64,000 bases of DNA from an uncultured Myxococcales bacterium (GTDB lineage Bacteria > Myxococcota_A > Polyangia > Fen-1088). The position numbers and the translations under genes were made by a program. Each line of letters starts with the position of its first letter. The stretch's first letter is position 1. The stretch lies in assembly GCA_964647025.1 (NCBI GenBank), contig CAZYFU010000010.1, positions 10,047-74,046 of the forward strand. Direction: 5' to 3'. The notes under the pieces are model-generated. The model saw only the letters and a list, made by a program, of their open reading frames with translations. It had not been told where the DNA came from and did no database searches. Below, one piece after another: positions 14,413 to 52,669 of the stretch.

Positions 14413-15081
14413 TCAGCGGGCGTAGATGATCAGGTTGTGGTACCTGGCCTCCGACGTGCCCGGGTTTTCGTAGGCATGCGTCTCGTCGGCGCGGAACGAC
14501 ACCGAATCCCCCGGGCCCAACTCCTGCACGTGGCCAGACACACGCAGGGTGAGCATACCGCTCAGAACGACCAGGATCTCTCGCGTTCCCGGCGCGTGCG
14601 GGTCGGACGCGTGGGAGGCCCGGGCCGCGAGTCTCAGCTCGTATAGCTCGACCCAGGGATTCGATCCCGCTGGTGACAGTGGACGGCTTTCCATTTTACC
14701 GTCGGCCGACCTGAGGATCTGCGCGTCGGTGCGTCGCAACACGGAGATGCCCTGTTCCTCGCCGCCGATCAACTCGGAGAACGGGATGCCGAGGCCGACC
14801 GCGATCTTCCACAGAACGCCGAGCGACGGATTGCTCTTGAACAGCTCTATTTGCGACAGCGCGGCCCGGCTGACGCCCGAGGCGAGCGCGAGCTCGTCGA
14901 GGGATAGCCCGCGCGCCTTGCGCTTCTCGCGCAGTTGCAGTCCCACGCGTCTCGCCAAATCCGCGGCACCGACGTCGTCGCCGGGCGGCAGCGGGGCTTT
15001 TCGCAGCGCGATCGCCGTGGCACGTTTTGCACTCGACGGGACAGATGTCTTTTCTTTCTTCATGCGGCCTCGCGGCGTCAC
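14413..15081 (-). CDS. XRE-family transcriptional regulator with C-terminal cupin domain
   Basis: HTH_3 region LREKRKARGLSLDELALASGVSRAALSQIE followed by a cupin sensor domain (GTREILVVLSGMLTLRV...GDSVSFRADETHAYEN). The start may instead be MKKEKTS at 15063. Confidence 0.75.
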   Translation of the reverse strand: MTPRGRMKKEKTSVPSSAKRATAIALRKAPLPPGDDVGAADLARRVGLQLREKRKARGLSLDELALASGVSRAALSQIELFKSNPSLGVLWKIAVGLGIPFSELIGGEEQGISVLRRTDAQILRSADGKMESRPLSPAGSNPWVELYELRLAARASHASDPHAPGTREILVVLSGMLTLRVSGHVQELGPGDSVSFRADETHAYENPGTSEARYHNLIIYAR

Positions 15082-15352
15082 GATAGCAAAAGTCGAGCGA
15101 ACGTACAGAAGAACGCCGGTTGGTCCGTCCTGAGCCTTGTCCGCGCGGTCCTTGGACTTGTCGCGTGCGCGACCGGAAAACAGCGTGCACCGAGCGGTTC
15201 CGAACCTTCAAAAATCTGGAGGCCCGACTCTCGATATGCAAAAGACGAATGATTTGATAAGTCGGTTGCTCGAACCGAGGGCGTCGCGTGTTGTTACCGC
15301 TGGACTTCATTGTCCAGCCCCTTCACCATTGTCGGATTCAGGAGTTCACCAC

Positions 15353-16651
15353 ATGCGGTTTGGTGCAGTATCGACCATCACGTTGCTGTCCGCGGTTGCC
15401 TTCGTCGCCTGTTTTCCCAGCTCTCCGATGAAAGATCCGACGCCGGGTGACGGCGGGAGCAGCGGAAGCGGCGGTGCGTCCTCATCTTCGTCCTCCGGAG
15501 GTGCCCAGTCGAACGGTGGGTCGTCTTCCGGAGGGGCGTCCGCGTCGGGCGGCAGCGGTGGCGAGACCTCTGGCGGTGCTCAGGGCGGTGCCATGAGCCA
15601 GGGCGGTGCCACTTCGTCGGGCACGGCTGCCGCGGGCGGGGCCAAGCCCACCGGGGGAACGACGGCGATCGGCGGCAATACTGGCGCTGGCGGCGTGACT
15701 CCCGGAGGCGGAACCAACGCGGCCGGTGGCGCTTCCGCCAGCGATTGCACCGACGAGCCTCCGCCACAAACGCCGACGTGTGCAGATTGGGCCGCATGGA
15801 ACACCTGCAGCGCTGATTGGTTCAAGAACTACTGCAATCGCAGCTGTGGACGGTGCACGGGTGGCAGCAGCAACGGGGGCGCTGGCGGGGGACAGAGCCG
15901 GGGTGGCGCTGGCGGCGCGGGTGGCGTAAGCCAAGGCGGCGCGGGTGGCAGCGGTAACAGCGGCGGTGGCGGCGTGCCGGGACCAAGCACCACCAACCCG
16001 CAGATCTCGGGAACCAACGGCTGGGTCAGCCGATACTGGGACTGCTGCAAGCCGTCCTGCGCGTGGAACACCAACCTCAAGGCCTGTCAGAAAGACGGAA
16101 TGACGCGCGTATCGGACAGGAACATGGAGTCCGTTTGTAAGAACGGCGGCGCCTACCAGTGCTACGACCTGTCACCCTGGTACGACGCCAACACGAACAT
16201 GTCCTATGGCTTCGTGGCCCACGGCGGTGGGTGTGGCACCTGCTACCTTCTGCAGTTCACCGGATCCAGCCACAACGGTGGCAACAATGCCGGCTGCGGG
16301 GCGATCAAGGGGCAGCAGATGATCGTGCAGAAGATCAACGACGGCGGTGACGTCGGCGGCGAGCAGTTCGACCTGCTCGTGCCCGGCGGCGGCGTTGGGC
16401 AGTTCAACGGTTGCACCAACCAATGGGGCTCCTCGACCGACCTCGGCTCCCAGTACGGCGGGCTGCTTTCGTCGTGCAAGGCCGATCCCGGCTGCATGAA
16501 GCAGAAGTGCCAGTCCGTGTTCGGCAACATGCCCGCACTGCTCGCTGGCTGCAACTGGTTCACCAACTGGTACAGCTCGGCCGACAACCCGTCCGTGGTC
16601 TATAAGCAGGTCACCTGTCCGCCCGAGATCACCGCCAGAAGCGGAATGTAG
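15353..16651 (+). CDS. secreted glycoside hydrolase family 45 endoglucanase with N-terminal ShK-like Cys module and Gly/Ser-rich linkers
   Basis: Signal peptide MRFGAVSTITLLSAVAFVA, then a linker of about 100 aa (Gly/Ser/Ala/Thr-rich). Six-Cys module CTDEPPPQTPTCADWAAWNTCSADWFKNYCNRSCGRC (C-x3-C-x2-C tail, ShKT-like), then a second linker. GH45 catalytic domain with hallmark YWDCCKPSCAW (catalytic Asp), QFDLLVPGGGVGQFNGCTNQWG (second catalytic Asp in FDL) and SADNPSVVYKQVTCPPEITARSG, which closely parallel Humicola EGV motifs. ggag RBS 8 nt upstream of the ATG. Confidence 0.9.
   Translation: MRFGAVSTITLLSAVAFVACFPSSPMKDPTPGDGGSSGSGGASSSSSSGGAQSNGGSSSGGASASGGSGGETSGGAQGGAMSQGGATSSGTAAAGGAKPTGGTTAIGGNTGAGGVTPGGGTNAAGGASASDCTDEPPPQTPTCADWAAWNTCSADWFKNYCNRSCGRCTGGSSNGGAGGGQSRGGAGGAGGVSQGGAGGSGNSGGGGVPGPSTTNPQISGTNGWVSRYWDCCKPSCAWNTNLKACQKDGMTRVSDRNMESVCKNGGAYQCYDLSPWYDANTNMSYGFVAHGGGCGTCYLLQFTGSSHNGGNNAGCGAIKGQQMIVQKINDGGDVGGEQFDLLVPGGGVGQFNGCTNQWGSSTDLGSQYGGLLSSCKADPGCMKQKCQSVFGNMPALLAGCNWFTNWYSSADNPSVVYKQVTCPPEITARSGM
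15420..15740. repeat. GGC/GGT/AGC-rich low-complexity coding repeat (Gly/Ser/Ala/Thr linker of GH45 protein); a second shorter block lies at about 15860-16000
   Basis: Runs of ggcgg / agcgg / tcgtc triplets visible in the sequence, encoding the linker …GGSSGSGGASSSSSSGGAQSNGGSSSGGASASGGSGGETSGG…. The same linker type (Gly/Ser/Ala-rich) is found in the lipoprotein at 59.3-59.9 kb. Confidence 0.6.
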
Positions 16652-16925
16652 CGGCAGGTCGGGGCGCCCGACCGGCGCGGGGTCACCCGCGATTCGGCAC
16701 GCGCCTTGGCGTTTTGTAGACGCGAAGTGTTGCGACGTCGACTCCATGGACCAGCGCGGCGAGCGGACTTATCCACACGTCCCTTCCCACTCCGCGGTGC
16801 CGAGCGGTTATCTCTTTGTGCTCCGATCCTGGCGACAACGTGTGCTCCAGCGCTCGTAGCGGGCTGTGGAATCGTCCACAGGCCCGGCAGCGATCGGGTA
16901 CATTTGGAATCACTGGAGTTTTTCG

Positions 16926-18905
16926 ATGCAGCTCAAATCTCCTGCGTGGCTTGTGGCAGCAGCCGTCCCTTTCCTCGCGTGTGCCAACGCTGACGTCATC
17001 ACCCCTGGCGCGGGCGGTGGCGGTAGTGGGGGCGGGGGCACCCCTGACGCCTCCATCATCCTCCCCGACGCGCTCGCCATCGGAATCAAGCAGGACGTCA
17101 AGCCCATCGTGCGAACCGGCTCCGACGCCAAGCCAGGGCCCAACTGCGGCAACGGCGAGCTGACCAAGGACGAGGCCTGCGACGACGGGAACAACAACGA
17201 CGGCGATGGCTGCGCCGCCAACTGCCTCAGCGTGGACCAGGGCTACAAGTGCGTGACGCCCGGTACGGCGTGCACCAAGGTTGCCCGCTGTGGTGACGGC
17301 TTGGTCGTGTTCCCCGAGCAGTGCGATGATGGCAACAAGAACAACGACGACGGCTGTTCCGACGCCTGCAAGATCGAGGTCACGTACAAGTGCGACGGCA
17401 ACCCCAGCGTGTGCACGCACACCACGTGTGGCGACGGCAAGATCGAGGGGGCGGAGAGCTGCGAGGACGGCAACAACCTGCCGTTCGACGGTTGCTCGGC
17501 CGAATGTACCAACGAACCCAAGTGCACGAGCGGTGTCTGCACCTCTCGTTGTGGTGATGGGATCGTGCTCGGCGAAGACTGTGACGATGGCAACAACACC
17601 GACGGCGATGGCTGCTCGGCCGACTGCAAGGTCGAGAGCGGCTTCAAGTGTGATCAGCCGACCCTCGGCGACAAGATGAAGGTCCCCGCCGTGTACCGCG
17701 ACTTCAACTATCGCAACCCGAGCGACTTCGAGGCCGGCGTCACCGGTTCGAAGACCCCGACCACGGGTCTGGTCAAGAGCGAGCTCGATGCCAACGGCAA
17801 GCCCGTGTACACCGGGGTCACCGGCAGCGCAGTTCACATCGAAAGCGCCGCTTCGTTCGCCAAGTGGTACACCAACGTCGAAGGCGTCAACCACGCGACG
17901 ACCGGCAAGCTGACCCTCTGGACCAACGGCAAGGGTGGCTATGTGAACCGGTACAAGGAGGACGGGACGCAGTACTTCAACACCGAGCCAGCCTACTACT
18001 GCGGAAACGTCGGCTCGGAGAAGGAAGACGACGAGGGGAACCCAATTCCCTGCACGTCGAAGTACGCCACCGAGACCGACTGCGACAAGCTCGCCGCCAA
18101 GGGCGAGGAGATGCTGCCAGGGAGCTGCGTCGCCACCAACGGTTCCTACACCGCCAGGTTCATTGTCTCGAAGATGGATGGCAACCCTTGCTTCTTCCCG
18201 GTCGACGACGACAACTTCTCGAAGGACAGAAACTACTCTCAGATTCCTCCGTACTACGACGCCTCGAAGTCGTGGCCGAAACAGACCGACGACACCGGCG
18301 CCGTGATCATGCACAACTTCAGCTTCACCAGCGAGGTGCGCTATTGGTTCAAGTTCGAGAAGAGCCAGACCTACACCCTCGACTTCGTGGGTGACGACGA
18401 CGTCTGGGTCTTCATCAACGGCAAGCTCGCAGTCGACCTGGGCGGCATCCACTCGCCGGTCAGTGGCAGCATCACGATCGGCTCGAACGGCAACGGCACC
18501 ACCACGGTGACGTCGTTCGATGACCAGGGCGTGGCGACCACCCCGACCACGTCGACCGTCAACCTCGGCCTGCAGGACGGCAAGGTCTACGAGGCGGCCG
18601 TCTTCCAAGCCGAGCGGCAGACCACCGGCTCGTCGTACAAGCTGACCTTGAGCGGGTTCAACGCCGCGCCCAGCCTATGCAAGCCCGACTGCGGCGACGG
18701 CGTCCTGCAAATCGGCGAGGAGTGCGACGACGGTGATCAAAACGGCAAGGGCGGCTACGGTAGCTGCGCCTCCGACTGCACCCTGCAGGCCGGCTTCTGC
18801 GGCGACGGCACGGTCCAAGATGACGAGGAGTGCGACGACGGCGCCTTGAACGGAACCGCCGACCACTGTCCGTCCGGCTGCCACTTCCTGATTCCGATCC
18901 TGTAG
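16926..18905 (+). CDS. secreted protein with Myxococcales-type Cys-rich repeats and a PA14/fibro-slime-like domain
   Basis: Signal peptide MQLKSPAWLVAAAVPFLACANA. At least five N-terminal and two C-terminal repeats of CGDG-x-(EQCDDGN-x3-DGCS-x-C) (Myxo disulfide-rich repeat). The central domain carries FVGDDDVWVFINGKLAVDLGGIH (PA14/fibro-slime motif). ggag RBS. Confidence 0.8.
   Translation: MQLKSPAWLVAAAVPFLACANADVITPGAGGGGSGGGGTPDASIILPDALAIGIKQDVKPIVRTGSDAKPGPNCGNGELTKDEACDDGNNNDGDGCAANCLSVDQGYKCVTPGTACTKVARCGDGLVVFPEQCDDGNKNNDDGCSDACKIEVTYKCDGNPSVCTHTTCGDGKIEGAESCEDGNNLPFDGCSAECTNEPKCTSGVCTSRCGDGIVLGEDCDDGNNTDGDGCSADCKVESGFKCDQPTLGDKMKVPAVYRDFNYRNPSDFEAGVTGSKTPTTGLVKSELDANGKPVYTGVTGSAVHIESAASFAKWYTNVEGVNHATTGKLTLWTNGKGGYVNRYKEDGTQYFNTEPAYYCGNVGSEKEDDEGNPIPCTSKYATETDCDKLAAKGEEMLPGSCVATNGSYTARFIVSKMDGNPCFFPVDDDNFSKDRNYSQIPPYYDASKSWPKQTDDTGAVIMHNFSFTSEVRYWFKFEKSQTYTLDFVGDDDVWVFINGKLAVDLGGIHSPVSGSITIGSNGNGTTTVTSFDDQGVATTPTTSTVNLGLQDGKVYEAAVFQAERQTTGSSYKLTLSGFNAAPSLCKPDCGDGVLQIGEECDDGDQNGKGGYGSCASDCTLQAGFCGDGTVQDDEECDDGALNGTADHCPSGCHFLIPIL
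17150..17660. repeat. tandem degenerate coding repeats (about 130 nt units) specifying Myxococcales Cys-rich repeats
   Basis: Recurrent motif …gacgacgg(c/g)aacaa(c/g)aacgacggcgatggctgc…tgc at about 17185, 17325, 17455, 17585, and again at 18725 and 18835. Confidence 0.6.
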
Positions 18906-21150: not shown

Positions 21151-21501
21151 ATGACCAAGGCTGATCTCATCGCGGTAGTCGCAGACAAGCTCAAGTTTCC
21201 GTGGGCTCGCGCGGAGCTACTGGTCGATCAGATCTTCGCCTGCATGACCAATGCTCTCCAACAAGGCGAGGGTATCGAGATTCGTGGGTTTGGCAGTTTC
21301 ACGGTTCGCAGCTACAAGGCCTACGAGGGGCGCAATCCACGCACCGGCGACACCGTTCACGTGCGACCGAAGCGTCTGGCGTTCTTCAAGGTCGGCAAGG
21401 AGTTGCGCGAGCGTGTGAACCAAGGACGGCTCAGGGCCACCGGCAACGCGCCTGTCGTCGCGCCCGAGCCCGCGCCCAGCAATCTGCCTCAGTCCGAGTA
21501 G
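21151..21501 (+). CDS. ihfB: integration host factor beta subunit-like (HU/IHF family DNA-binding protein)
   Basis: MTKADLIAVVADKL...GEGIEIRGFGSFTVRSY...GRNPRTGDTVHVRPKRLAFFKVGKELRERVN. Closest in pattern to IhfB (EIRGFGSF, GRNP+TGD, FK.GKELR). Confidence 0.8.
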   Translation: MTKADLIAVVADKLKFPWARAELLVDQIFACMTNALQQGEGIEIRGFGSFTVRSYKAYEGRNPRTGDTVHVRPKRLAFFKVGKELRERVNQGRLRATGNAPVVAPEPAPSNLPQSE

Positions 21502-23546
21502 CTGGCTGCGAGCCTGACCACGAGGCCTTGGTCGGCGTCGACGAGGACGAGGTCACCGTCCGCGAAAGTGTCGACGGCACCGGCAGCTCCGATGACGGCT
21601 GGAATGCCGCGCTCGCGGGCCTGGGCCGCCACATGGTCGAGCGGGCCGCCGGTCTCGGTGACGATTGCAGCGGGCGTGACCAAGGGCAGCTCGGTGGGAA
21701 GAAGCGTCCGCGCGAGAAGGACGGCGTCTGCGGGCAGGGGCCGGAGCTCACCCGACCGATGCAGCACGATCCGACCCATGGCTTGGCCGCCGGTGCCATG
21801 TCCGCGAGCTGCCTTGTCGTTGGCATGCGCAGTGGCGGGTGGCGGATTCTTGCGGGCGGTTAGCCAAGCCGTGCGGCCCGTCGCTGCGAGTGCGACGAGG
21901 TCGAGGTCTCGCTCGACGCCAGAGCCGAGGCCGCGCAGAACGGCCAGAGGTGCGAAGAAGACGTCGCTCTCGTCGGCAACCCGCCCCGCACGTCGGAGGT
22001 CGCGCCCCATCGCGAGCAGCGAGCGCCGGATCACGGCCTGTGCCCGCGCGTAGAGCCAGTCGTCTCCCTCCGACAGCGAGATGGCATCGCGGGCCAAGGG
22101 AAGCAGTCCGTGCCACTCTTCTCGCCGGTCGCGAGGCAGCTGCGTGGTCACCTGGGCATTCGCAGCCTGCCAGTCGAGCGTGCACGCCTCGCATCCTCCA
22201 CCCCGGTCGAGCAGCAGCGGCGACCGATCCTCGGCATAGGTCGGAGCCGACACGTCCCAGATGGCGGACTCGTCGCCGAACAGCCGCAGGTACGCGTCCG
22301 TGGCCAGGGATCGCTCCGCGTCCGTCTCGGCCAGACGAATGGCGGCGGCATGGCGGCGGCGCTCTTCGGCCATGGAGGGAACGCCCGCAAGCAGGGCAGG
22401 CAGCAGGGGTAGCTGACCTTGCGCGTGGTCGCGGAGGAAGTCCTGCAATCGCCGGCGTGTTCGCTTGAGCATCGGTTGCAGCACACCGAAGATCCGCTGG
22501 TACGCCGATGCGAACAGCGACAACGCCTCCTCCAGCTTCGGCGCTTGCCCAAGCGCCGAGAGCGCTGTCTCCAAATCCGCTCGGAGCTTTTCGAAGTAGT
22601 CGCGGGCAGTGAGCTCGGGCGCGGGCGGGACCTCGCGTTCGTCGCTTGCGTAGAAGAGGTAGCCGCCCAGAACGCGCTGCCGAATTCCTATGCGGCAATG
22701 CTGGTCGACGAATTCGACCAGCCCGGCCTGCGCCGGCGACAAAGGGAGCGGGTTGTGTGCCGCGTCCCATCGCCATGCCGCCCGGTCTTCTCCCTCGGCG
22801 AGGTCTTTCCAGCCGAGCCACTCCACGGAGGGCGGTTTGGACTGGAAGGGCCGCGCCTGCAGGTAGACGAGCCCCTGCTCGGACAGCACCCACTCGATTT
22901 CCGCGGGGCCAAGGCCGCGGACGAGCTCCTCCAACGCGGCTCGCAACAGGGTGTCCGCCTCGGCCGGCAAAGCCCCTCGGCGAATCATCACTTCCGGTTC
23001 TGCCTGTGCGTCCGGCGCGAAGGCGGCACTACCCTCGGCGAGGCCCGCGACGTAGGCGTGGATCAGCACCGCGACTGGCGCTTCTCCCGCCTCGTGTCCA
23101 TGGGCCATGGCATAGGCCGCGGCACCCGGCGAGAGCGCCGAGGCCAGCACCCGACGGATGGCGTGCCCCACCTCGGCAGCCGGCAAGTCCACGTACGACT
23201 CGTACACGCCGGCGGCCAGTGCTCCGGCCATGTCCTCTCGGGCGAAAGACGAGCGAACCGAGAACCTGTCCGCTCCGACATCTCGCAGACGGGCGTCGAG
23301 CTGTGCTGCGAATCCTTCGGGCCAGGGGGCGTACTCGACCTGCTTCCGGTATTGCGCCAGCGCAGCCCAGGTGGCGTCTCCGAAGGTGGCCGGCAGAGCG
23401 ATGGTCGGGCAGAGCGTGCGAAACAGCGCGTCCGTGACCGCGAACCCGCGAGGCGTCAGCAAACCCGCGCCGGCCAAGCGCGCCAGCGACCGGGCTTTTC
23501 CACCCAAGCTGGCGTCGGCAGCGGCGAGTGCCGCAAGGTAGGACAT
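21489..23546 (-). CDS. PEP-utilising enzyme family protein (PPDK_N ATP-grasp plus C-terminal phosphohistidine mobile domain), rifampicin phosphotransferase / PEP synthase-like
   Basis: N-terminus: GGKARSLARLAGAGLLTPRGFAVT ... FSVRSSFAREDMAGALAAG (the PEP synthase VRSSATAEDL motif). C-terminus: TETGGPLDHVAAQARERGIPAVIGA (swivelling His domain). No signal peptide. Its 3' end overlaps ihfB convergently by 13 nt. Confidence 0.8.
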   Translation of the reverse strand: MSYLAALAAADASLGGKARSLARLAGAGLLTPRGFAVTDALFRTLCPTIALPATFGDATWAALAQYRKQVEYAPWPEGFAAQLDARLRDVGADRFSVRSSFAREDMAGALAAGVYESYVDLPAAEVGHAIRRVLASALSPGAAAYAMAHGHEAGEAPVAVLIHAYVAGLAEGSAAFAPDAQAEPEVMIRRGALPAEADTLLRAALEELVRGLGPAEIEWVLSEQGLVYLQARPFQSKPPSVEWLGWKDLAEGEDRAAWRWDAAHNPLPLSPAQAGLVEFVDQHCRIGIRQRVLGGYLFYASDEREVPPAPELTARDYFEKLRADLETALSALGQAPKLEEALSLFASAYQRIFGVLQPMLKRTRRRLQDFLRDHAQGQLPLLPALLAGVPSMAEERRRHAAAIRLAETDAERSLATDAYLRLFGDESAIWDVSAPTYAEDRSPLLLDRGGGCEACTLDWQAANAQVTTQLPRDRREEWHGLLPLARDAISLSEGDDWLYARAQAVIRRSLLAMGRDLRRAGRVADESDVFFAPLAVLRGLGSGVERDLDLVALAATGRTAWLTARKNPPPATAHANDKAARGHGTGGQAMGRIVLHRSGELRPLPADAVLLARTLLPTELPLVTPAAIVTETGGPLDHVAAQARERGIPAVIGAAGAVDTFADGDLVLVDADQGLVVRLAASYSD

Positions 23547-45861: not shown

Positions 45862-46160
45862 TGCCAGGTCATTTCTACATTCTGGTCTCGCTAGCCCTGT
45901 TCTTCATCGGCACCACCGGCGTGCTCATGCGGCGGAACGCCTTGTTCGTGCTGATGAGCGTGGAGTTGCAGCTCGCCGCAGGTAGCCTGGCGCTGCTCGC
46001 GTTCTCGCGAGGCCTGGGCGATCAGCGTGGGCACGTGGTCGCGTTCTTCATCATGGCCCTGGCGGCGGCCGAGGCGGCGATCGGCCTCGCCATCGTGGTG
46101 TCCATCTACCGCGTGAACAAGAAGATCGATCTGGCCACCATCGACGAGCTCCGGAACTGA
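45861..46160 (+). CDS. nuoK: NADH-quinone oxidoreductase subunit K
   Basis: 99 aa; …VLMRRNALFVLMSVELQLAA…AAEAAIGLAIVVSIYR, a typical ND4L. Its ATG overlaps the nuoJ stop (ATGA). Confidence 0.9.
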   Translation: MPGHFYILVSLALFFIGTTGVLMRRNALFVLMSVELQLAAGSLALLAFSRGLGDQRGHVVAFFIMALAAAEAAIGLAIVVSIYRVNKKIDLATIDELRN

Positions 46161-46162
46161 CC

Positions 46163-48388
46163 ATGCTCTCTCAGCTTCGATTCATTCCCTTGCTGCCGCT
46201 GCTCGGGGCGGCGTACTTGATCCTGTTCGGGCGGCGCCACTCCAAGCGGGTCATCCATACGATCGCGACGGTGGCCGTGTTCGCGTCGTGTGTGATCTCG
46301 CTCGATGCGTTCTTCTTCGGGTTGCCGCCGGCGGCTCGGGCGGGCGGGCTCGTCGATGCCGTGTTTCCGTGGTTCGCGACGAGCGAGCTGAACGTGGACT
46401 TCACGCTGCGCATGGATGCCCTGTCGGGGCTGCTGTGCCTGGTGGTCACGTTCATTGGGACGCTGATCCACGTCTACTCGGTGGGCTACATGTCCCACGA
46501 GAAGGACTACGCCCGCTTCTTCGCCTATCTGAACCTGTTCTGCGGGGCGATGTTGCTGCTGGTCCTGGGCGATACCTTGCCCGTGGTGTTCATCGGTTGG
46601 GAGGGCGTGGGCCTGGCCAGCTATCTATTGATAGGCTTCTGGTACCAGGAAAGCGCCAACGCCAGCGCCGGCAAGAAGGCCTTCATCACCAACCGCATCG
46701 GCGACTTCGGCTTCCTCATCGGGATGTTCCTGCTCTTCCGGGCGACCGGCAGCCTCAGCATCCCCGAGATCCTGGATGCCGCCAAGGCAGGCTCGGCTTT
46801 GACTGCGCCCCTGTGGCTCGGTCTGCCGGTGGCGTTCTGGGCGGGCCTGTTCCTCTTCATCGGCGCGGCGGGCAAGTCGGCGCAGCTTCCTCTTTATGTG
46901 TGGTTGCCCGACGCCATGGCGGGGCCCACGCCGGTGTCGGCCCTCATCCACGCGGCCACCATGGTCACCGCGGGTGTGTACCTGGTGGCGCGAATGTCGG
47001 CGGTGTACATGTTGGCGCCCGCGGCGCTGGCCATCGTCGCCATCGTCGGCGCGCTGACCGCCGTGTTCGCGGCCATCATCGGCTTCGCGCAGAACGACTT
47101 CAAGAAGGTGCTGGCGTACTCGACGGTCAGCCAACTCGGCTTCATGTTCGTTGGCGTCGGCACCGCGAACTTCGCGGGCGGCATATTCCACTTGTTCACG
47201 CACGCGTTCTTCAAGGCCGGGCTCTTCCTCTGTGCCGGCTCGGTCATGCACGCGATGAGCGGGTCGGGCGACATCACCAAGATGGGCGGGCTGGCCAAGC
47301 GGCTGCCGTGGACCACGCGCGTGTTCCAGGCCTGCTGGTTGGCGATCTGCGGTGTTCCCATCTTTTCCGGCTTCTTCAGCAAGGACGCCATCCTGGAAGG
47401 CGCCTTCGCCACGCATGCCTACGGCCAGGGCCTCGCCTGGGTCGGCCCGCTCGTCGGTGGGCTGCTGCTCGTGGCGGCGCTGGGTACGGCGTTCTACATG
47501 TCGCGCCTGTACTTCCTGGTCTTCACCGGTCCCTGTCGCGCCGACGGGCACGTGCAAGAGCACATCCACGAGTCCCCCGTGTCGATGATTTTCCCGCTGG
47601 TGGTGCTCGCCGCGGGCGCGGTGCTGTCGGGCTTCGTGTCCGTACCGCCGGCGATTCGCGAGCTCCTGGGCAGGCACGGCGAGAGCACCCTGGCGGTTCT
47701 ATTGGCCCCTGCCGTGGGCGAGCCCATGCACGTATCCCATGCGCTCGAGTGGGGCGTGATGGCGACCTCGACCGTGGTTGCCCTGGGCGGCATCGGGCTC
47801 GCCTACCTGTTCTTCGGCGGCGGTTATCGCCAGCCTGCGCACGCGTTCGTGCAGAAGGTGCCGGGCTTCGTTGCGCTGGTGCGAGACAAGTTCCGCGTCG
47901 ACGAGCTCTACGCGAAGCTCCTCCTGCGTCCGTTCCGCTTGGTCTGTGACATCGTCTTCCAGCTGGTCGACCGGATCCTCATCGACAAGATCCTGATCGG
48001 TGGATGGACCTTCCTGGCCGACATGCTCGGGCGCGTGTTCCGCTTCTTCCAGGCTGGGGACGTCCAGCGCTACCTGGCGGCGTTCGCCATCGGCGCATCG
48101 GTGGTGGTCTGGGTGGCGGCGCGACCCGCTCGACCTGACGAGATCCGTATCAAGGTCGAGGGGCGGTCGGTCAAGGTGGACGTGGTGGATCCCGGCGCCC
48201 GCCGCGATGCCCTCAAGTACAGCTTCGACTTCGATGGCGACGGGCGGCCCGACCGCGCCGGCTCGACGCCGTCGGCGACTTGGATCTACGGCGGTGACCT
48301 TCACCAGAAGGTCACCATCACCATCGAGGACTCTCGCTGGCAGACCCGCCGCGTGATCACCCGGCCTTTCGAGCTCCGACAACCATGA
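46163..48388 (+). CDS. nuoL: NADH-quinone oxidoreductase subunit L, with an extra C-terminal soluble extension of about 95 aa
   Basis: ND5 family core (…WLPDAMAGPTPVSALIHAATMVTAGVYL…). 741 aa versus about 610-660 typical. The tail from ARPARPDEIRIKVEGRSVKVDVVD... to RPFELRQP is hydrophilic. Confidence 0.9.
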   Translation: MLSQLRFIPLLPLLGAAYLILFGRRHSKRVIHTIATVAVFASCVISLDAFFFGLPPAARAGGLVDAVFPWFATSELNVDFTLRMDALSGLLCLVVTFIGTLIHVYSVGYMSHEKDYARFFAYLNLFCGAMLLLVLGDTLPVVFIGWEGVGLASYLLIGFWYQESANASAGKKAFITNRIGDFGFLIGMFLLFRATGSLSIPEILDAAKAGSALTAPLWLGLPVAFWAGLFLFIGAAGKSAQLPLYVWLPDAMAGPTPVSALIHAATMVTAGVYLVARMSAVYMLAPAALAIVAIVGALTAVFAAIIGFAQNDFKKVLAYSTVSQLGFMFVGVGTANFAGGIFHLFTHAFFKAGLFLCAGSVMHAMSGSGDITKMGGLAKRLPWTTRVFQACWLAICGVPIFSGFFSKDAILEGAFATHAYGQGLAWVGPLVGGLLLVAALGTAFYMSRLYFLVFTGPCRADGHVQEHIHESPVSMIFPLVVLAAGAVLSGFVSVPPAIRELLGRHGESTLAVLLAPAVGEPMHVSHALEWGVMATSTVVALGGIGLAYLFFGGGYRQPAHAFVQKVPGFVALVRDKFRVDELYAKLLLRPFRLVCDIVFQLVDRILIDKILIGGWTFLADMLGRVFRFFQAGDVQRYLAAFAIGASVVVWVAARPARPDEIRIKVEGRSVKVDVVDPGARRDALKYSFDFDGDGRPDRAGSTPSATWIYGGDLHQKVTITIEDSRWQTRRVITRPFELRQP

Positions 48389-50025
48389 CCAGCCTAGCCA
48401 TCACCACCTTGTTGCCCTTTCTCGGCGGCGCCGTGGCCCTCCTGTTGCCGGGGGATCGCCCACGCCTCTTGCGCTGGTACGGGATCACCGTCGCGCTGGC
48501 CACCTTCGTGCAGTCGCTGTTCGTGCTGGCCGCCTTCGACGGCGGGCAGGCGGGGTTCCAGCTGCACTCCGATTGGGCTTGGGTGCCAAGCCTCGGCATC
48601 CGTTTCCACCTGGCGATCGACGGAATCTCGCTGTGGCTGGTGATGCTGTCGACCCTGATGGTGGTGGTGACGTTGCTGTCGCCGCAGGCCACGGGGTTCG
48701 TGCGCGACAAGAACCGCGGGTTCGTGGCGGCCATGCTGGTGCTCGAATCGGGCATGATCGGCGCGTTCGTCGCGCTGGACATGTTCACCTTCTACGTGTT
48801 CTGGGAGGTGATGCTGATCCCGATGTACTTCATCATCGGTATCTGGGGCGGCGAGCGGCGCATCTACGCCGCGGTCAAGTTCATCACCTTCACGCTGGTG
48901 GGCTCGCTGCTCATGTTGGCGGCCATCCTCTATATGGCGGTGGTGGTGCACCGCCTGACCGGCCAGTGGACCTTCGACTACGAGACCTGGTCGCGCTTGA
49001 TGCTGCCCCGCGAGACGCAGCTGCTGTGCTTTGGCGCCTTCGCGCTGGCCTTCCTCATCAAGGTGCCGCTGTTCCCACTGCACACCTGGCTGCCCGACGC
49101 GCACGTCGAGGCTCCGACCGGCGGCTCGGTCATCCTGGCCGCGGTCTTGCTGAAGCTGGGCGCTTACGGTTTCCTGCGCTTCGCGCTGCCGTTCTTCCCG
49201 CTGGCTGCTCACGACACCGCGCCGCTCATCGCTTGGCTGGCCGTGATTGGCATCGTGTATGGCGCGCTCATGGCCTACGCGCAGGACGACATCAAGAAGC
49301 TCGTGGCCTACTCGTCGGTGTCGCACCTGGGCTTCGTGGTGCTGGGCATCCTCACCGTGACCACCACCGGCATCCAGGGCGGCATCTACCAGATGCTCGC
49401 GCACGGCATCTCCACCGGCGGACTGTTCCTGGCGGTCGGCATCCTCTACGAGCGCAGGCACACGCGCAAGCTGTCGGACTTCGGCGGGCTGTGGGCGCGC
49501 ATGCCGGTCTTTGCAGCGGTCTTCCTGGTCGTCGTGTTGGCATCGGCCGGGTTGCCGGGGCTGTGCGGCTTCATCGGCGAGTTCATGGTGCTGATAGGCA
49601 CCTTCAATGCTGGCAAGGTCTGGGCCGAGACCGCGCAAGTCCCCGCTTTCGCCAACCCGGCGCTCTTGGCAGCCATCTCGACCACGGCCGTCATCTTGGC
49701 TGCGGTCTACCTCTTCACCATGTACCAGAAGACCATGCTCGGTCCGCTCGACAAGCCGGCCAACAAGGACGAGCACGTGCGCGATCTCGACCTCACCGAG
49801 AAGGTCGTCTTCGGCATCATCGTCGTTTTCGCTCTCGGCTTGGGCGTTGCCCCCGGGCCCATCTTGAACCGCAGCGCCGGTTCGGTGGACGGGTTGGTGG
49901 CCACGTACCGCACGCGGCTTGCGGAGAGCCGCCGCACCCCCGAGGCGCCGGCCCGCATGCTCAAGCCAGGCGGTTCGATGCGGCTCGTCGCATCTGACAG
50001 TGCCGTGCACGGAGGTCGGCCATGA
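48385..50025 (+). CDS. nuoM: NADH-quinone oxidoreductase subunit M
   Basis: ND4 family (…FVLWEVMLIPMYFIIGIWGG…WLPDAHVEAPTGGSVILAAVLLKLG…). Its ATG overlaps the nuoL stop. Confidence 0.9.
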   Translation: MTSLAITTLLPFLGGAVALLLPGDRPRLLRWYGITVALATFVQSLFVLAAFDGGQAGFQLHSDWAWVPSLGIRFHLAIDGISLWLVMLSTLMVVVTLLSPQATGFVRDKNRGFVAAMLVLESGMIGAFVALDMFTFYVFWEVMLIPMYFIIGIWGGERRIYAAVKFITFTLVGSLLMLAAILYMAVVVHRLTGQWTFDYETWSRLMLPRETQLLCFGAFALAFLIKVPLFPLHTWLPDAHVEAPTGGSVILAAVLLKLGAYGFLRFALPFFPLAAHDTAPLIAWLAVIGIVYGALMAYAQDDIKKLVAYSSVSHLGFVVLGILTVTTTGIQGGIYQMLAHGISTGGLFLAVGILYERRHTRKLSDFGGLWARMPVFAAVFLVVVLASAGLPGLCGFIGEFMVLIGTFNAGKVWAETAQVPAFANPALLAAISTTAVILAAVYLFTMYQKTMLGPLDKPANKDEHVRDLDLTEKVVFGIIVVFALGLGVAPGPILNRSAGSVDGLVATYRTRLAESRRTPEAPARMLKPGGSMRLVASDSAVHGGRP

Positions 50026-51470
50026 TCTCGTTGTTGGCGTCGTTGATGCCGCTCATTCTCACCGGCGGTGCGGCCTGTCTCGTGCTGGTGCTCGGCGTGA
50101 TGCTGGGGGCGCGGGCACGCGTGGCGACGACGTGGATCGCGGTCGCCGCTTCCGTCGCCGTGATGGTCGCGGCCGCGGTGTGCCTACCAGATGCCGACAA
50201 GAGCAAGCCCATTCTCGCGGACATGTGGATCGCGGATCGCACCGCGCTGGTCCTCGACTTGCTCATCGCGGTGGTCACCGCCATGACCTTGGTGGTCTTC
50301 CACAATTTCTCCCGCGAGCACGCCTTCGAGCGTGACGAGTTTCCGGCCCTGGTGCTGTTCGTGGCCTCGGGCATGATCATGGTGGTTCACGCCACGCACC
50401 TGCTCTCGCTGCTCATCGGCATCGAGACCATGTCGTTGGCTGCCTACGTGCTGGTCGCCAGTCACTACCGTTCCAGCCCAGGTGCCGAGGGGGCGCTCAA
50501 GTACTTCCTCATGGGCGCCATGGCCACCGGGTTCTTCGTGTACGGCATGGCCTTGGTGTATGGCACGAGCGGCGGCGAGCTTTCCTTCGCGGGGATCGGC
50601 GCGCGGGCCGCGACGGCAGGGGGCAACCCCCTCTTCATCGTGGGCGTGTACCTGATCTTGGTCGCACTGCTGTTCAAGGTCGCCGCGGTGCCGTTCCACA
50701 TGTGGCTGCCCGACGCGTACGAAGGTGCGCCCACCCCGGTCACGGGCTTCATGGCCACGGGGATCAAGGCGGCGGCCGTGGTCGGCATGGTGCGCCTGTT
50801 CGGGACTGCCTTCGCGGATCCGGCGGTGTCCCAGGGACACGCTGGCTGGGCACGCATCATCGGCATGGTGGCGTTTGCCAGCATGACCCTCGGCAACCTG
50901 GCTGCGATTCGGCAGGAGAGCGTGAAGCGCATGCTGGCGTATTCGTCCATCGCGCACGCCGGCTACCTGCTCGTGGGCGTGTCTGCCCTCGGTTTCGGCG
51001 TAGCCGCGGCCCGGCCTGCGCTGATCTTCTACTTGATGGCCTACAGCGCGATGACCCTCGGTGCGTTCGCGGTAGCGGCGTGGGTTGGCCGTCGCGGTGA
51101 CGAGCGGCTGCGGGTCGACGATTGGTCCGGGCTGGCGAAGCGTCGCCCGGCCTTGGCGCTGGCGATGACCTTGTTCCTGCTCTCGCTGGCGGGGTTCCCT
51201 CCGACAGGCGGTTTCTTCGGCAAGTTCTACCTCTTCCGTGCCGCCGTCGAACGTCCCGAGCTGATTTGGCTGGTGGTCGCCGCGGTGCTGAACAGCGTGG
51301 TCAGCGTCTACTACTACCTGCGCATCGTAGTGGCCATGTACTTCCGCGAGCGCCCCGAAGAGTTCAAGAGCTATCCCTCGCTGGCGACCGGCGTGGTGCT
51401 GGCCTTCCTGGTGGTGCTGGTGCTCGGCCTCGGCCTGGTTCCGGCGCCCATGATGGCCGTCGTGCAGTAG
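50022..51470 (+). CDS. nuoN: NADH-quinone oxidoreductase subunit N
   Basis: ND2 family (…FHMWLPDAYEGAPTPVTGFMATG…). ggagg RBS; ATG overlaps the nuoM stop. Confidence 0.9.
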   Translation: MISLLASLMPLILTGGAACLVLVLGVMLGARARVATTWIAVAASVAVMVAAAVCLPDADKSKPILADMWIADRTALVLDLLIAVVTAMTLVVFHNFSREHAFERDEFPALVLFVASGMIMVVHATHLLSLLIGIETMSLAAYVLVASHYRSSPGAEGALKYFLMGAMATGFFVYGMALVYGTSGGELSFAGIGARAATAGGNPLFIVGVYLILVALLFKVAAVPFHMWLPDAYEGAPTPVTGFMATGIKAAAVVGMVRLFGTAFADPAVSQGHAGWARIIGMVAFASMTLGNLAAIRQESVKRMLAYSSIAHAGYLLVGVSALGFGVAAARPALIFYLMAYSAMTLGAFAVAAWVGRRGDERLRVDDWSGLAKRRPALALAMTLFLLSLAGFPPTGGFFGKFYLFRAAVERPELIWLVVAAVLNSVVSVYYYLRIVVAMYFRERPEEFKSYPSLATGVVLAFLVVLVLGLGLVPAPMMAVVQ

Positions 51471-51525
51471 TCGGGAGAGTCCCGGCGCGGGGCTTGCGCA
51501 ACCCTTGGCGGCGGAAAGCTTCACC

Positions 51526-51561
51526 CCAAAAATGAAAACGGGCGCCGGATGAGGGCGCCCG
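51526..51561 (-). terminator. rho-independent terminator-like hairpin between convergent nuoN and the Zn-ribbon protein gene
   Basis: Perfect 8-bp GC stem CGGGCGCC / GGCGCCCG (51539-51561) with a 7-nt loop. It is followed on the minus strand by a U-rich tract (rc of ccccaaaaatgaaaa), 23 nt after the minus-gene stop. Confidence 0.55.
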
Positions 51562-51583
51562 CTTCTACGAGAGGACGTGGTGT

Positions 51584-52669
51584 CTACTTCACGGACTCCG
51601 CGATTCCGCGGGCGGCGTTGGCGACGCCGGAGCGAGCGGCCATGTAGTCGTTCACGGCCATGAGGAACTGTTCGAGGTCCTCCTTCTTCTTGCCCTTGCG
51701 CGACTTCTTGCTGCAGCTCTCCCAGGCCTGCATCTGGCGCATCTCCTCTTCGAGGATGCCGCCTGCCTTGTGCGAGTTCTTCCAGGTCGGGACCGACTTG
51801 GCGTCGACCTTGGCTTCCTTGTCCTCGACCACCAGCAACTGGCCGCAGTCCTTGCGTACGCGATCCATGAACGCCACCGGATCCTTCTTGAAGCAGGCGT
51901 CGCTCATGTACTCCAGCACCTCTTGCGCATCCTTCATCTTGGCCAGGCCCGGGATCGCGCAGTAGAGGAACTTCTCGAACGCGGCGGTCTCGGCCGTGAT
52001 GTCAGGCGTCATATGCCATGCGGTGCCGAGCTCTTGGATCAGCTGGTCCGTGTCCTTGGTGGTGCCGCGGGCCTTGATCTTCTCGGAGTAGTCCTCCATG
52101 CCCGACTGCAGCTTGGGCAGCGTCTCGCGGTACTTGTCGAGGGCGCCGGCGAGCTCCGGCGGGGCGTCGCGCAGACCTCCGAATGCCTGACGCGCGCGCT
52201 CGATCTTGGGCACGCACTCGGTGATGAGGTAGTCGGCGAAGGTCTTTTGCTGGGTGAAGTAAGCGGACTCGATGCGCTGCTGGAACTGCTCGCCTTTCTG
52301 GAACATGCCGATGTCGACCTCGCTCGCCATCACGCAGTTCCAGAAGGCGCCGGTCTCGCGCTTTTCGAGCTCGACGAACTTTTCGGCGTAGTTGAGCTTC
52401 TCCTGCGCGGCCGCTTTGCGGTTGCGGTCCTGCACTTGTTTGAAGATGACGAAGCCGATCACGATCAGGGCGACGCCGCCGACGATCATGCGGTTGCGCC
52501 TGCGAACTGCTTCGCGGGCGGCCATCTGCCGCGCGTATTCCTCGGCGGCGTCGGCCATCGGAGCGGGTACGCGGCCTGTGGGACCCACGCCTGGCAGGGG
52601 GGTGCCACACTGGGAGCAGGCTGTTGCGCTGGGTAGATTCTGGTGTCCGCATCGTGGACAGGAAACCAT
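51584..52669 (-). CDS. hypothetical membrane protein with N-terminal zinc-ribbon
   Basis: ATG at 52669 with strong RBS aaggagag. CPRCGHQNLPSATACSQCGTP (CxxC...CxxC zinc ribbon), one TM helix (MIVGGVALIVIGFVIF), then a soluble domain of about 270 aa. Immediately downstream of ctpA. Confidence 0.55.
   Translation of the reverse strand: MVSCPRCGHQNLPSATACSQCGTPLPGVGPTGRVPAPMADAAEEYARQMAAREAVRRRNRMIVGGVALIVIGFVIFKQVQDRNRKAAAQEKLNYAEKFVELEKRETGAFWNCVMASEVDIGMFQKGEQFQQRIESAYFTQQKTFADYLITECVPKIERARQAFGGLRDAPPELAGALDKYRETLPKLQSGMEDYSEKIKARGTTKDTDQLIQELGTAWHMTPDITAETAAFEKFLYCAIPGLAKMKDAQEVLEYMSDACFKKDPVAFMDRVRKDCGQLLVVEDKEAKVDAKSVPTWKNSHKAGGILEEEMRQMQAWESCSKKSRKGKKKEDLEQFLMAVNDYMAARSGVANAARGIAESVK

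Follow-up and report, generated by a model that had tools for sequence, protein, structure and literature searches.

A predicted GH45 subfamily A endoglucanase of an uncultured myxobacterium with an ShK-like module in the position of a carbohydrate-binding module

How a bacterium comes to carry a cellulase of glycoside hydrolase family 45 (GH45) joined to a small six-cysteine module, and what this module contributes, are the questions raised by a gene of an uncultured Myxococcales bacterium (GTDB lineage Myxococcota_A; Polyangia; Fen-1088). Cellulases of GH45 are in industrial use, and the scattered occurrence of the family serves as a textbook example of horizontal transfer into animals. The gene occupies positions 15353..16651 (+ strand) of a 64,000-nucleotide stretch of contig CAZYFU010000010.1 (assembly GCA_964647025.1), denoted here as the window. 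An original prediction, made from the letters of the window, described its product as a fungal-type GH45 endoglucanase, rare in bacteria and anciently acquired by horizontal transfer, that bears an ShKT-like module instead of a carbohydrate-binding module (CBM). The analysis described below makes it likely that the gene encodes an exported, most likely lipid-anchored endoglucanase of GH45 subfamily A (GH45-A), that an ShK-like module takes the CBM position, and that the gene is an old bacterial resident.

The coordinates proved exact: 15353..16651 is a single open reading frame (ORF) of 432 codons and a stop codon. A start at TTG 15137 would give a longer ORF, which was rejected, because AGGAG precedes the ATG at 15353 and the close homologs all begin with MRFGAVSTITLL. 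The exact protein is already present in public data (NCBI, a Logan assembly). It consists of a signal peptide, a first linker, the six-cysteine module, a second linker, and the catalytic domain (Table 1).

The catalytic domain is a true GH45 domain, as had been predicted. It matches Pfam PF02015 with 124.5 bits (cut-off 27, E 7e-36) over profile positions 2-212 of 214. A phmmer search against all PDB sequences at E<=10 returned subfamily-A GH45 enzymes only (E ~1e-39 to 1e-32), with Thielavia 5glx as the best match (E 1.4e-39), and with Melanocarpus 1l8f/1oa7, springtail 5h4u, Neurospora 6mvi, and Humicola 2eng/3eng/4eng (~1e-32) as further ones. An AlphaFold2 (AF2) model of the domain, built on an alignment of 18 bacterial domains and reaching a predicted local distance difference test (pLDDT) value of 88.2, was compared with solved structures by Foldseek. 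It superimposes on 1l8f, 5glx, 5h4u, 6mvi, and 4eng with a template modelling (TM) score of 0.74-0.77, E-values of 1e-19 to 7e-23, and 36-42% identity, and the subfamily-B enzyme EG27II trails far behind (E 0.02, TM 0.32). By sequence and model the domain is thus assigned to subfamily A, not to B or C.

The three GH45 motifs singled out in the original prediction are present (RYWDCCKPSCAW, aa 227-238; QFDLLVPGGGVGQFNGCT, aa 338-355; ADNPSVVYKQVTCP, aa 410-423), and the equivalents of both catalytic aspartates, Asp230 and Asp340, are retained and invariant across 18 diverse bacterial GH45 domains. Their roles as base and acid are presumed to be those of established GH45 enzymology. The domain would cleave beta-1,4-glucan by an inverting mechanism like that of Humicola EGV, with Asp230 as the base and Asp340 as the acid, and the predicted activity is that of an endo-beta-1,4-glucanase. 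The domain holds 15 cysteines. One of them, Cys315 (16295-16297), lies within the bacterial-specific insertion NNAGCGAIKG and is probably unpaired, since close homologs have Ala at this position.

Relatives of the enzyme are numerous among bacteria. A scan of GTDB, restricted to one genome per species, gave 543 pattern matches, 456 of which encode a GH45 relative. The best 80 of these 456 stretches (the related loci in what follows) belong nearly all to metagenome-assembled genomes (MAGs) of Polyangia/Myxococcota, with Cellvibrio and Teredinibacter in addition; there are often several loci per genome, and several genomes contribute two to the best 80. A word-indexed homolog search retrieved 118 full-length relatives, and a search with the domain only retrieved 312 protein clusters at E<=1e-5. 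The relatives inspected show bacterial signal peptides, lipoboxes, and Gly/Ser linkers. The claim that GH45 is rare in bacteria is, in the form in which it was made, not supported by these numbers. In the literature, GH45 was found in 31 of 16,401 RefSeq bacterial species, which was called rare and read as support for a fungal root (PMC13084967), and a dbCAN table of cultured myxobacteria lists it in about nine genomes (PMC12093494). GH45 is thus known in myxobacteria, and the size of the family in uncultured Polyangia is absent from the readable literature.

The six-cysteine module shows exactly the predicted spacing, C-x10-C-x8-C-x8-C-x3-C-x2-C (aa 132-168). Domains of the ShK type have the disulfide connectivity C1-C6, C2-C4, C3-C5. 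The Pfam ShK model PF01549 scores 16.3 bits within the whole protein and 22.4 bits for the module alone, at a gathering cut-off of 20.9, and it matches 51 of 63 non-identical homolog modules at E<=1 (best 3e-7). When a profile of the 63 modules was searched against PDB, only ShK-fold peptides stood at the top, namely Brugia BmK1 (2mcr, 1.8e-5) and Oulactis OspTx2a/b (6ckd, 5e-5; 6buc, 1.6e-4), followed by the ShTK domain 7l2g (1.4e-3) and then by MMP23, BgK, and ShK. The AF2 model of the module (pLDDT 85.5) has ShKT peptides as its sole Foldseek matches (TM 0.61-0.64). Of 122 homologs, 64 have the module, and its six cysteines are invariant in all of these, as they are in the alignment of the 63 homologous modules. 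With this recurrence, and with the PF02015 score of the catalytic domain, the resemblances are no product of chance. No CBM family profile matched the whole protein or the 63 modules at E<=1, in a Pfam scan that readily picked up CBM2 and CBM10 in the Cellvibrio-type GH45s. The module is judged ShK-like at the superfamily level from profiles and the predicted fold; the prediction is supported on this point, and none of the known CBM families was recognized in its place.

In protein P0119, which stems from another assembly and shares a 90% cluster with P0001, the GH45 domain is 100% identical to that of the window protein and the module just 86%. The changes relative to the module of P0001 cluster in the first loop and the helix (PPPQPQTCAEWVEW vs PPPQTPTCADWAAW), and could be due to recombination or to diversifying change in the module.

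The N-terminus, whose lipoprotein-type signal peptide (aa 1-20) had been overlooked in the earlier reading, bears on where the enzyme would act. The window protein fits a PROSITE-type lipobox rule, as do 75 of 131 full-length homologs and 43 of the 60 that have the module. Lipid anchoring, with Cys20 as the lipidated first mature residue, is most likely from the sequence, and because the lipobox is conserved and a long tether lies N-terminal to the first folded module, a surface-exposed enzyme is suggested. Cleavage at the lipobox and acylation of Cys20 would place the protein on the cell envelope, and the 111-aa Gly/Ser tether, the 37-aa ShK-like knot, and the 54-aa linker would keep the catalytic domain at a distance of tens of nanometres from the membrane. 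A Gly/Ser/Ala linker of about 100 aa had been predicted between module and enzyme; the stretch exists, and it joins the signal peptide to the module. Among homologs, the order anchor-linker-module-linker-GH45 is conserved and the linker sequences vary freely: linker 1 measures 105-167 aa with unrelated sequences, and linker 2 measures 35-77 aa. TRF detected no real tandem repeat in the linker DNA. The combination of lipobox, long tether, and ShK-like module on an ordinary GH45-A catalytic domain is an undescribed architecture. No paper on this fusion was found in a literature search whose full-text matches were all false and for which subscription literature was mostly unsearchable.

As to the function of the module, its position and its partners are informative. 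In Cellvibrio, Teredinibacter, and the Polyangia locus L047, a CBM2 (plus CBM10) lies N-terminal to GH45 and the ShK module is missing. The module itself occurs in 36 of the 80 related loci and in none of the Cellvibrio-type loci. In Polyangia GH45s that lack the module (P0096, P0089, P0100, and others), the long N-terminal region gave no Pfam match, so that a rule of "CBM or ShK, never both" is drawn from the CBM2-bearing examples only.

An exhaustive search with the module profile over 1.84 billion representative proteins matched 1,204 proteins at E<=1e-3. The best 150 of these 1,204 (P0220-P0369) are multi-module proteins of the subtype C-x-D-x-P-P..Y-T-C-x-Q-Q..W-G-K-C...W-M..G-x-C..x-C-G-R-C. 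This divergent ShK-like subtype often occurs in two to seven tandem copies (e.g. P0307, P0316, P0328, P0239, P0248, P0305), and some of its carriers look bacterial, many eukaryotic. The Pfam ShK model mostly misses it, with 12 of 98 multi-module relatives passing at 1e-4. Glycan-active partners among the 98 best multi-module matches include DPBB_1 (5), GH26 (4), GH5 (4), Expansin_C (2), GH7 (1), and GH134 (1), and ten bacterial-looking lipoproteins with the module include one GH6, one GH26, and one GH5. A further profile, made from non-GH45 bacterial modules (A5), retrieved 6 tiny proteins only and yielded no partner census.

A targeting role is the best guess for the module, because it sits where CBM2 and CBM10 do and recurs on glycan-active proteins. 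This small module may be protease-resistant and bind, or target the enzyme to, a cell-wall polymer or a partner such as the fibro-slime protein encoded next to the GH45 gene. Given that position and co-occurrence are the basis, such a CBM-like, substrate- or wall-targeting role is put forward tentatively, as possible rather than probable, and a purely structural role is given about the same weight.

Several findings weigh against the reading as a whole or against parts of it. The conserved Trp/Phe/Tyr of the module also belong to the usual core of ShKT domains and are hence no evidence for sugar binding. Non-glycan partners occur as well, both in the census of 98 (fasciclin 3, TGL 2, CAP, trypsin) and among the ten bacterial-looking lipoproteins (TGL, trypsin-like peptidase, DUF4360, histidine phosphatase (His_Phos)). 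Module identity exceeds GH45-domain identity in just 19 of 62 homologs, a count on which the idea of a module more strongly conserved than the enzyme was rejected. The lipobox carries Phe at position -3, not the commonest residue Leu, and 56 of the 131 homologs fail the lipobox expression. No other cellulase is encoded within the 64-kb window, so that the window does not establish the cellulolytic lifestyle assumed in the original prediction, and substrates could also be xyloglucan, mixed-linkage glucan, or the cellulose of prey or biofilms.

The partner list and the unexceptional conservation would fit a rigid, disulfide-stabilised spacer or stability element that sits in a long disordered tether and binds no ligand. 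In secreted proteins ShKT domains are added promiscuously, here also to peptidases, TGL, fasciclin, and CAP, and the module is conserved no more highly than the catalytic domain. However, many GH45 paralogs have linkers alone (e.g. P0111), a bona fide CBM often occupies the same place where the module is absent, and the loop sequences of the module are well conserved between species. The spacer explanation is therefore regarded as possible, though not probable.

A similar weighing applies to the anchor. The protein might be secreted freely via signal peptidase I, with the long linker as a leftover N-terminal tail, and both the non-canonical -3 residue and the approximately 43% of homologs outside the lipobox rule would fit this. 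Still, a Cys near position 20 after small residues is kept across the clade of the window protein while the surrounding residues vary, and a 111-aa tail before the first folded module is more sensible as a tether. Free secretion is considered rather doubtful on these grounds.

The origin of the gene was addressed with a neighbour-joining tree (Kimura distances, 215 columns, 100 bootstraps). Besides the window protein it covered 80 bacterial loci, those closest in sequence to the query, and only three eukaryotes, taken from PDB, and it is a crude tree. The eukaryotes form a split of their own apart from all 81 bacterial sequences (99/100), and the window protein falls inside a 21-member clade (98/100). 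The eukaryotic branch joins beside this window clade in only 54-56 of 100 replicates. The closest relatives are bacterial, with hundreds at 50-69% identity and 60-69% for those in conserved synteny. At least 10 MAG species of the window clade share the order O-acetylhomoserine (OAH) sulfhydrylase (-), XRE-cupin (-), GH45 (+), fibro-slime (+), seryl-tRNA synthetase (SerRS) (+), and across the syntenic loci identity is 82-89% for the housekeeping neighbours and 60-69% for the GH45 domain. The GC content at third codon positions (GC3) of the GH45 domain is 0.872 and that of the neighbours 0.80-0.88, which bears out the predicted host-like composition. Since the synteny is conserved, GC3 is like that of the neighbours, and the window clade is recovered in 98/100 replicates, the gene reads as an old, vertically inherited resident within a large bacterial GH45 radiation and not as a recent fungal import.

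Acquisition of a fungal-type GH45 from a eukaryote by a cellulolytic myxobacterium, with later amelioration, is judged unlikely. Among solved structures, its best relatives come from fungi or springtails, GH45 is seen in the literature as fungal-rooted and rare in bacteria (PMC13084967), and ShK and fibro-slime domains are typical of eukaryotes as well. Yet no bacterial GH45 structure is among the PDB matches, so the fungal best match reflects sampling, and the bacterial relatives are 50-69% identical compared with 36-42% for the fungal ones. The eukaryotic split together with its loosely placed attachment fits a transfer from bacteria to fungi equally well, and synteny and GC3 indicate no recent arrival. 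Of the ancient horizontal acquisition originally proposed, a transfer of GH45-A between domains of life at some point stands as likely; its direction, and an entry into this lineage, find no support in an attachment of 54-56/100.

Within the same tree a gammaproteobacterial clade (84/100) is nested within Polyangia sequences that bear CBM2: the Cellvibrio/Teredinibacter loci L044, L048, L057, L066, L075, and L079-L081 lie among the Polyangia/Sandaracinaceae loci L041, L047, and L078. This nesting suggests that a whole CBM2-GH45 gene was exchanged between Myxococcota and Cellvibrionales.

Two further explanations carry little weight. ShK-fold peptides of sea anemones and helminths block voltage-gated potassium (Kv) channels, and Polyangia include predators, so the module could be imagined as a toxin-like effector, e.g. 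an ion-channel blocker against eukaryotic prey or grazers that is co-delivered with a wall-degrading enzyme. A channel-toxin function is unlikely, however, because the Lys-Tyr of the anemone peptide OspTx2a aligns with Trp-Phe/Leu in the modules of this family, and homologs do not conserve the nearby Lys at aa 158; as the module is also tethered inside a membrane-anchored enzyme and is not a free peptide, the effector explanation has very little probability. A non-hydrolytic, expansin- or loosenin-like wall loosener is highly improbable too: the DPBB fold is common to GH45 and expansins and Foldseek lists weak expansin matches (E 0.1-0.5, all expansin structures at E >0.09), but both catalytic aspartates and the entire GH45-A active-site block are retained, the GH45-A matches are better by ~20 orders of magnitude, and Pfam finds neither an expansin C-terminal domain (Expansin_C) nor DPBB_1. 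Neither of the outcomes named beforehand as refuting the GH45 domain, a match to expansin/DPBB only or missing catalytic Asp equivalents, was thus observed.

The features of the gene and its two flanking genes are collected in Table 1.

Table 1. Features of the GH45 gene and its flanking genes in the window
Feature	Position	Strand	Basis or remark
XRE-HTH/cupin regulator, divergent	14413..15081	-	Pfam HTH_3, Cupin_2; beside GH45 in 9 related loci
Shine-Dalgarno-like AGGAG	15340..15344	+	8 nt 5' of ATG 15353; read from sequence
Lipoprotein-type signal peptide, aa 1-20, MRFGAVSTITLLSAVAFVAC	15353..15412	+	Lipobox A-F-V-A-C, PROSITE-style rule
Linker 1, aa 21-131, 111 aa, low complexity (G37 S24 A17 T10)	15413..15745	+	
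ShK-like (ShKT) six-Cys module, aa 132-168, CTDEPPPQTPTCADWAAWNTCSADWFKNYCNRSCGRC	15746..15856	+	Pfam PF01549, PDB profile search, AF2/Foldseek
Linker 2, aa 169-222, 54 aa, Gly-rich, module to GH45	15857..16018	+	
GH45 subfamily-A catalytic domain, aa 223-432	16019..16648	+	Pfam, PDB phmmer, AF2/Foldseek
Asp230, equivalent of the catalytic base Asp10 of Humicola insolens EGV / Melanocarpus 20K	16040..16042	+	RYWDCC block alignment
Asp333, equivalent of loop residue Asp114	16349-16351	+	Alignment
Asp340, equivalent of the catalytic acid Asp121 (H. insolens) / Asp120 (Melanocarpus)	16370..16372	+	QFDLLVPGGGVG block alignment
Downstream neighbour, predicted lipoprotein with 6 myxobacterial Cys-rich repeats and a fibro-slime/PA14 domain	16926..18905	+	Pfam DUF4215, PA14

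The downstream neighbour is recognized by the NCBIfam models TIGR02232 and TIGR02148, in the latter case with 74 bits at a cut-off of 45. A fibro-slime gene adjoins GH45 in L003, L005, L008, L009, L011, L013, L014, L016, L017, L020, and L033. When it was sought in all 80 related loci with jackhmmer, it was found in the window clade only; the fibro-slime protein is therefore not a general GH45 partner. For the window protein, a functional partnership with it is possible. A promoter and terminator scan gave nothing usable, and as no terminator-like site was detected in the 275-nt gap (16652-16925), co-transcription of the GH45 and fibro-slime genes is possible. The XRE-cupin protein can be conjectured from its position to be a sugar-sensing regulator of the pair. 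GH45, ShK, and fibro-slime are three families of patchy bacterial and eukaryotic distribution that stand side by side at this locus.

The window as such represents core chromosome, with genes for Lon, ClpB, PBP1, nuoF/L/M/N, and SerRS. A strong negative AT skew (-0.22 to -0.28) at 46000-52000 extends over three Proton_antipo_M genes (nuoL/M/N-like, 46163-51470, +) and probably just reflects T-rich second codon positions in genes for very hydrophobic membrane proteins. An ORF of 995 aa at 55537-58524 (+) combines an N-terminal Lamin Tail Domain with PPDK_N (PEP-utilising, ATP-binding), which is an unusual combination, and a second PPDK_N/PEP-utilizers protein is encoded at 21489-23546 (-).

A further-reaching proposal can be formulated, which is offered as speculation more apt to fail than to hold. 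The divergent ShK-like knot (C-x-D-x-P-P...C..W..W..C...W-F/M...C...CGRC) would be an unrecognised polysaccharide- or cell-wall-targeting family shared by Polyangia and eukaryotic microbes, which substitutes for CBM2/CBM10 on GH45 and also serves GH5, GH6, GH7, GH26, GH134, and expansin-like proteins. Together with the fibro-slime neighbour, the enzyme would then form a conserved pair for surface cellulose attack as in Fibrobacter. As a corollary of this proposal, the main ancient reservoir of GH45 subfamily A may lie in Polyangia and not in fungi.

The locus matters for three reasons. In the published view, bacteria are marginal holders of GH45, whereas the locus points to a large, old, multi-paralog radiation in uncultured Polyangia that is unsampled by current GH45 phylogenies. 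A knot typical of eukaryotes appears to be reused in bacteria on several hydrolases of plant glycans, at the place where CBMs normally sit, and is thereby a candidate for a new binding module. Finally, the pairing of GH45 with fibro-slime recurs in two phyla and bears on surface cellulose attack by bacteria without cellulosomes. The definition of GH45 is left unchanged, and the finding is useful rather than surprising.

Among the known systems compared here, the catalytic domain has counterparts in the fungal GH45-A enzymes, namely Humicola insolens EGV/Cel45A, Melanocarpus albomyces 20K, and those of Thielavia terrestris and Neurospora crassa (Cel45A). They share the fold, the catalytic Asp pair, and the active-site blocks RYWDCCKPSC, FD-L/I-x-PGGGVG, and ADNP with the window domain, at 36-42% identity and a Foldseek TM of ~0.76. 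The bacterial clade differs from them by an insertion of ~11 residues after FTG and by extra Cys-containing loops (CKADPGCMKQKC). The fungal enzymes are secreted freely and carry a CBM1 at the C-terminus or no CBM1 at all, whereas the window protein has a lipobox at its N-terminus and joins an ShK-like module through Gly-rich linkers.

Cellvibrio japonicus Cel45A and its relatives in Cellvibrio and Teredinibacter are bacterial GH45-A enzymes as well, and they too carry N-terminal accessory modules on low-complexity linkers. Their catalytic domains are ~47-49% identical to that of the window protein, from which they are about as distant as the fungal enzymes. In contrast to it, they possess CBM2 and CBM10 on poly-Ser linkers and no ShK-like module, and they lie far from the window clade in the tree.

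The module has its counterparts in eukaryotic ShKT proteins, such as the ShK and BgK toxins, nematode astacins (e.g. BmK1), MMP23, and CRISP-type proteins. A six-Cys pattern with the C-x3-C-x2-C ending is common to both, and both serve as an add-on to secreted enzymes. The window module differs in being bacterial and divergent, in its borderline Pfam score, in a long Pro-rich first loop, in the missing Lys-Tyr dyad, and in its fusion to a glycoside hydrolase.

For the gene pair, the closest parallel is found in Fibrobacter succinogenes. Fibro-slime proteins are cellulose-binding surface proteins of this species (PMC4668043), and its GH45 gene Fisuc_1473 lies directly upstream of the fibro-slime genes Fisuc_1474/1475 (PMC3079729). 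Fibrobacter belongs to another phylum, its GH45 falls outside the best 80 loci and is thus more distant, and no ShK-like module is reported there. In both cases, however, a GH45 gene immediately precedes that of a fibro-slime surface protein, and neither GH45 carries a classical cellulose CBM (PMC3079729).

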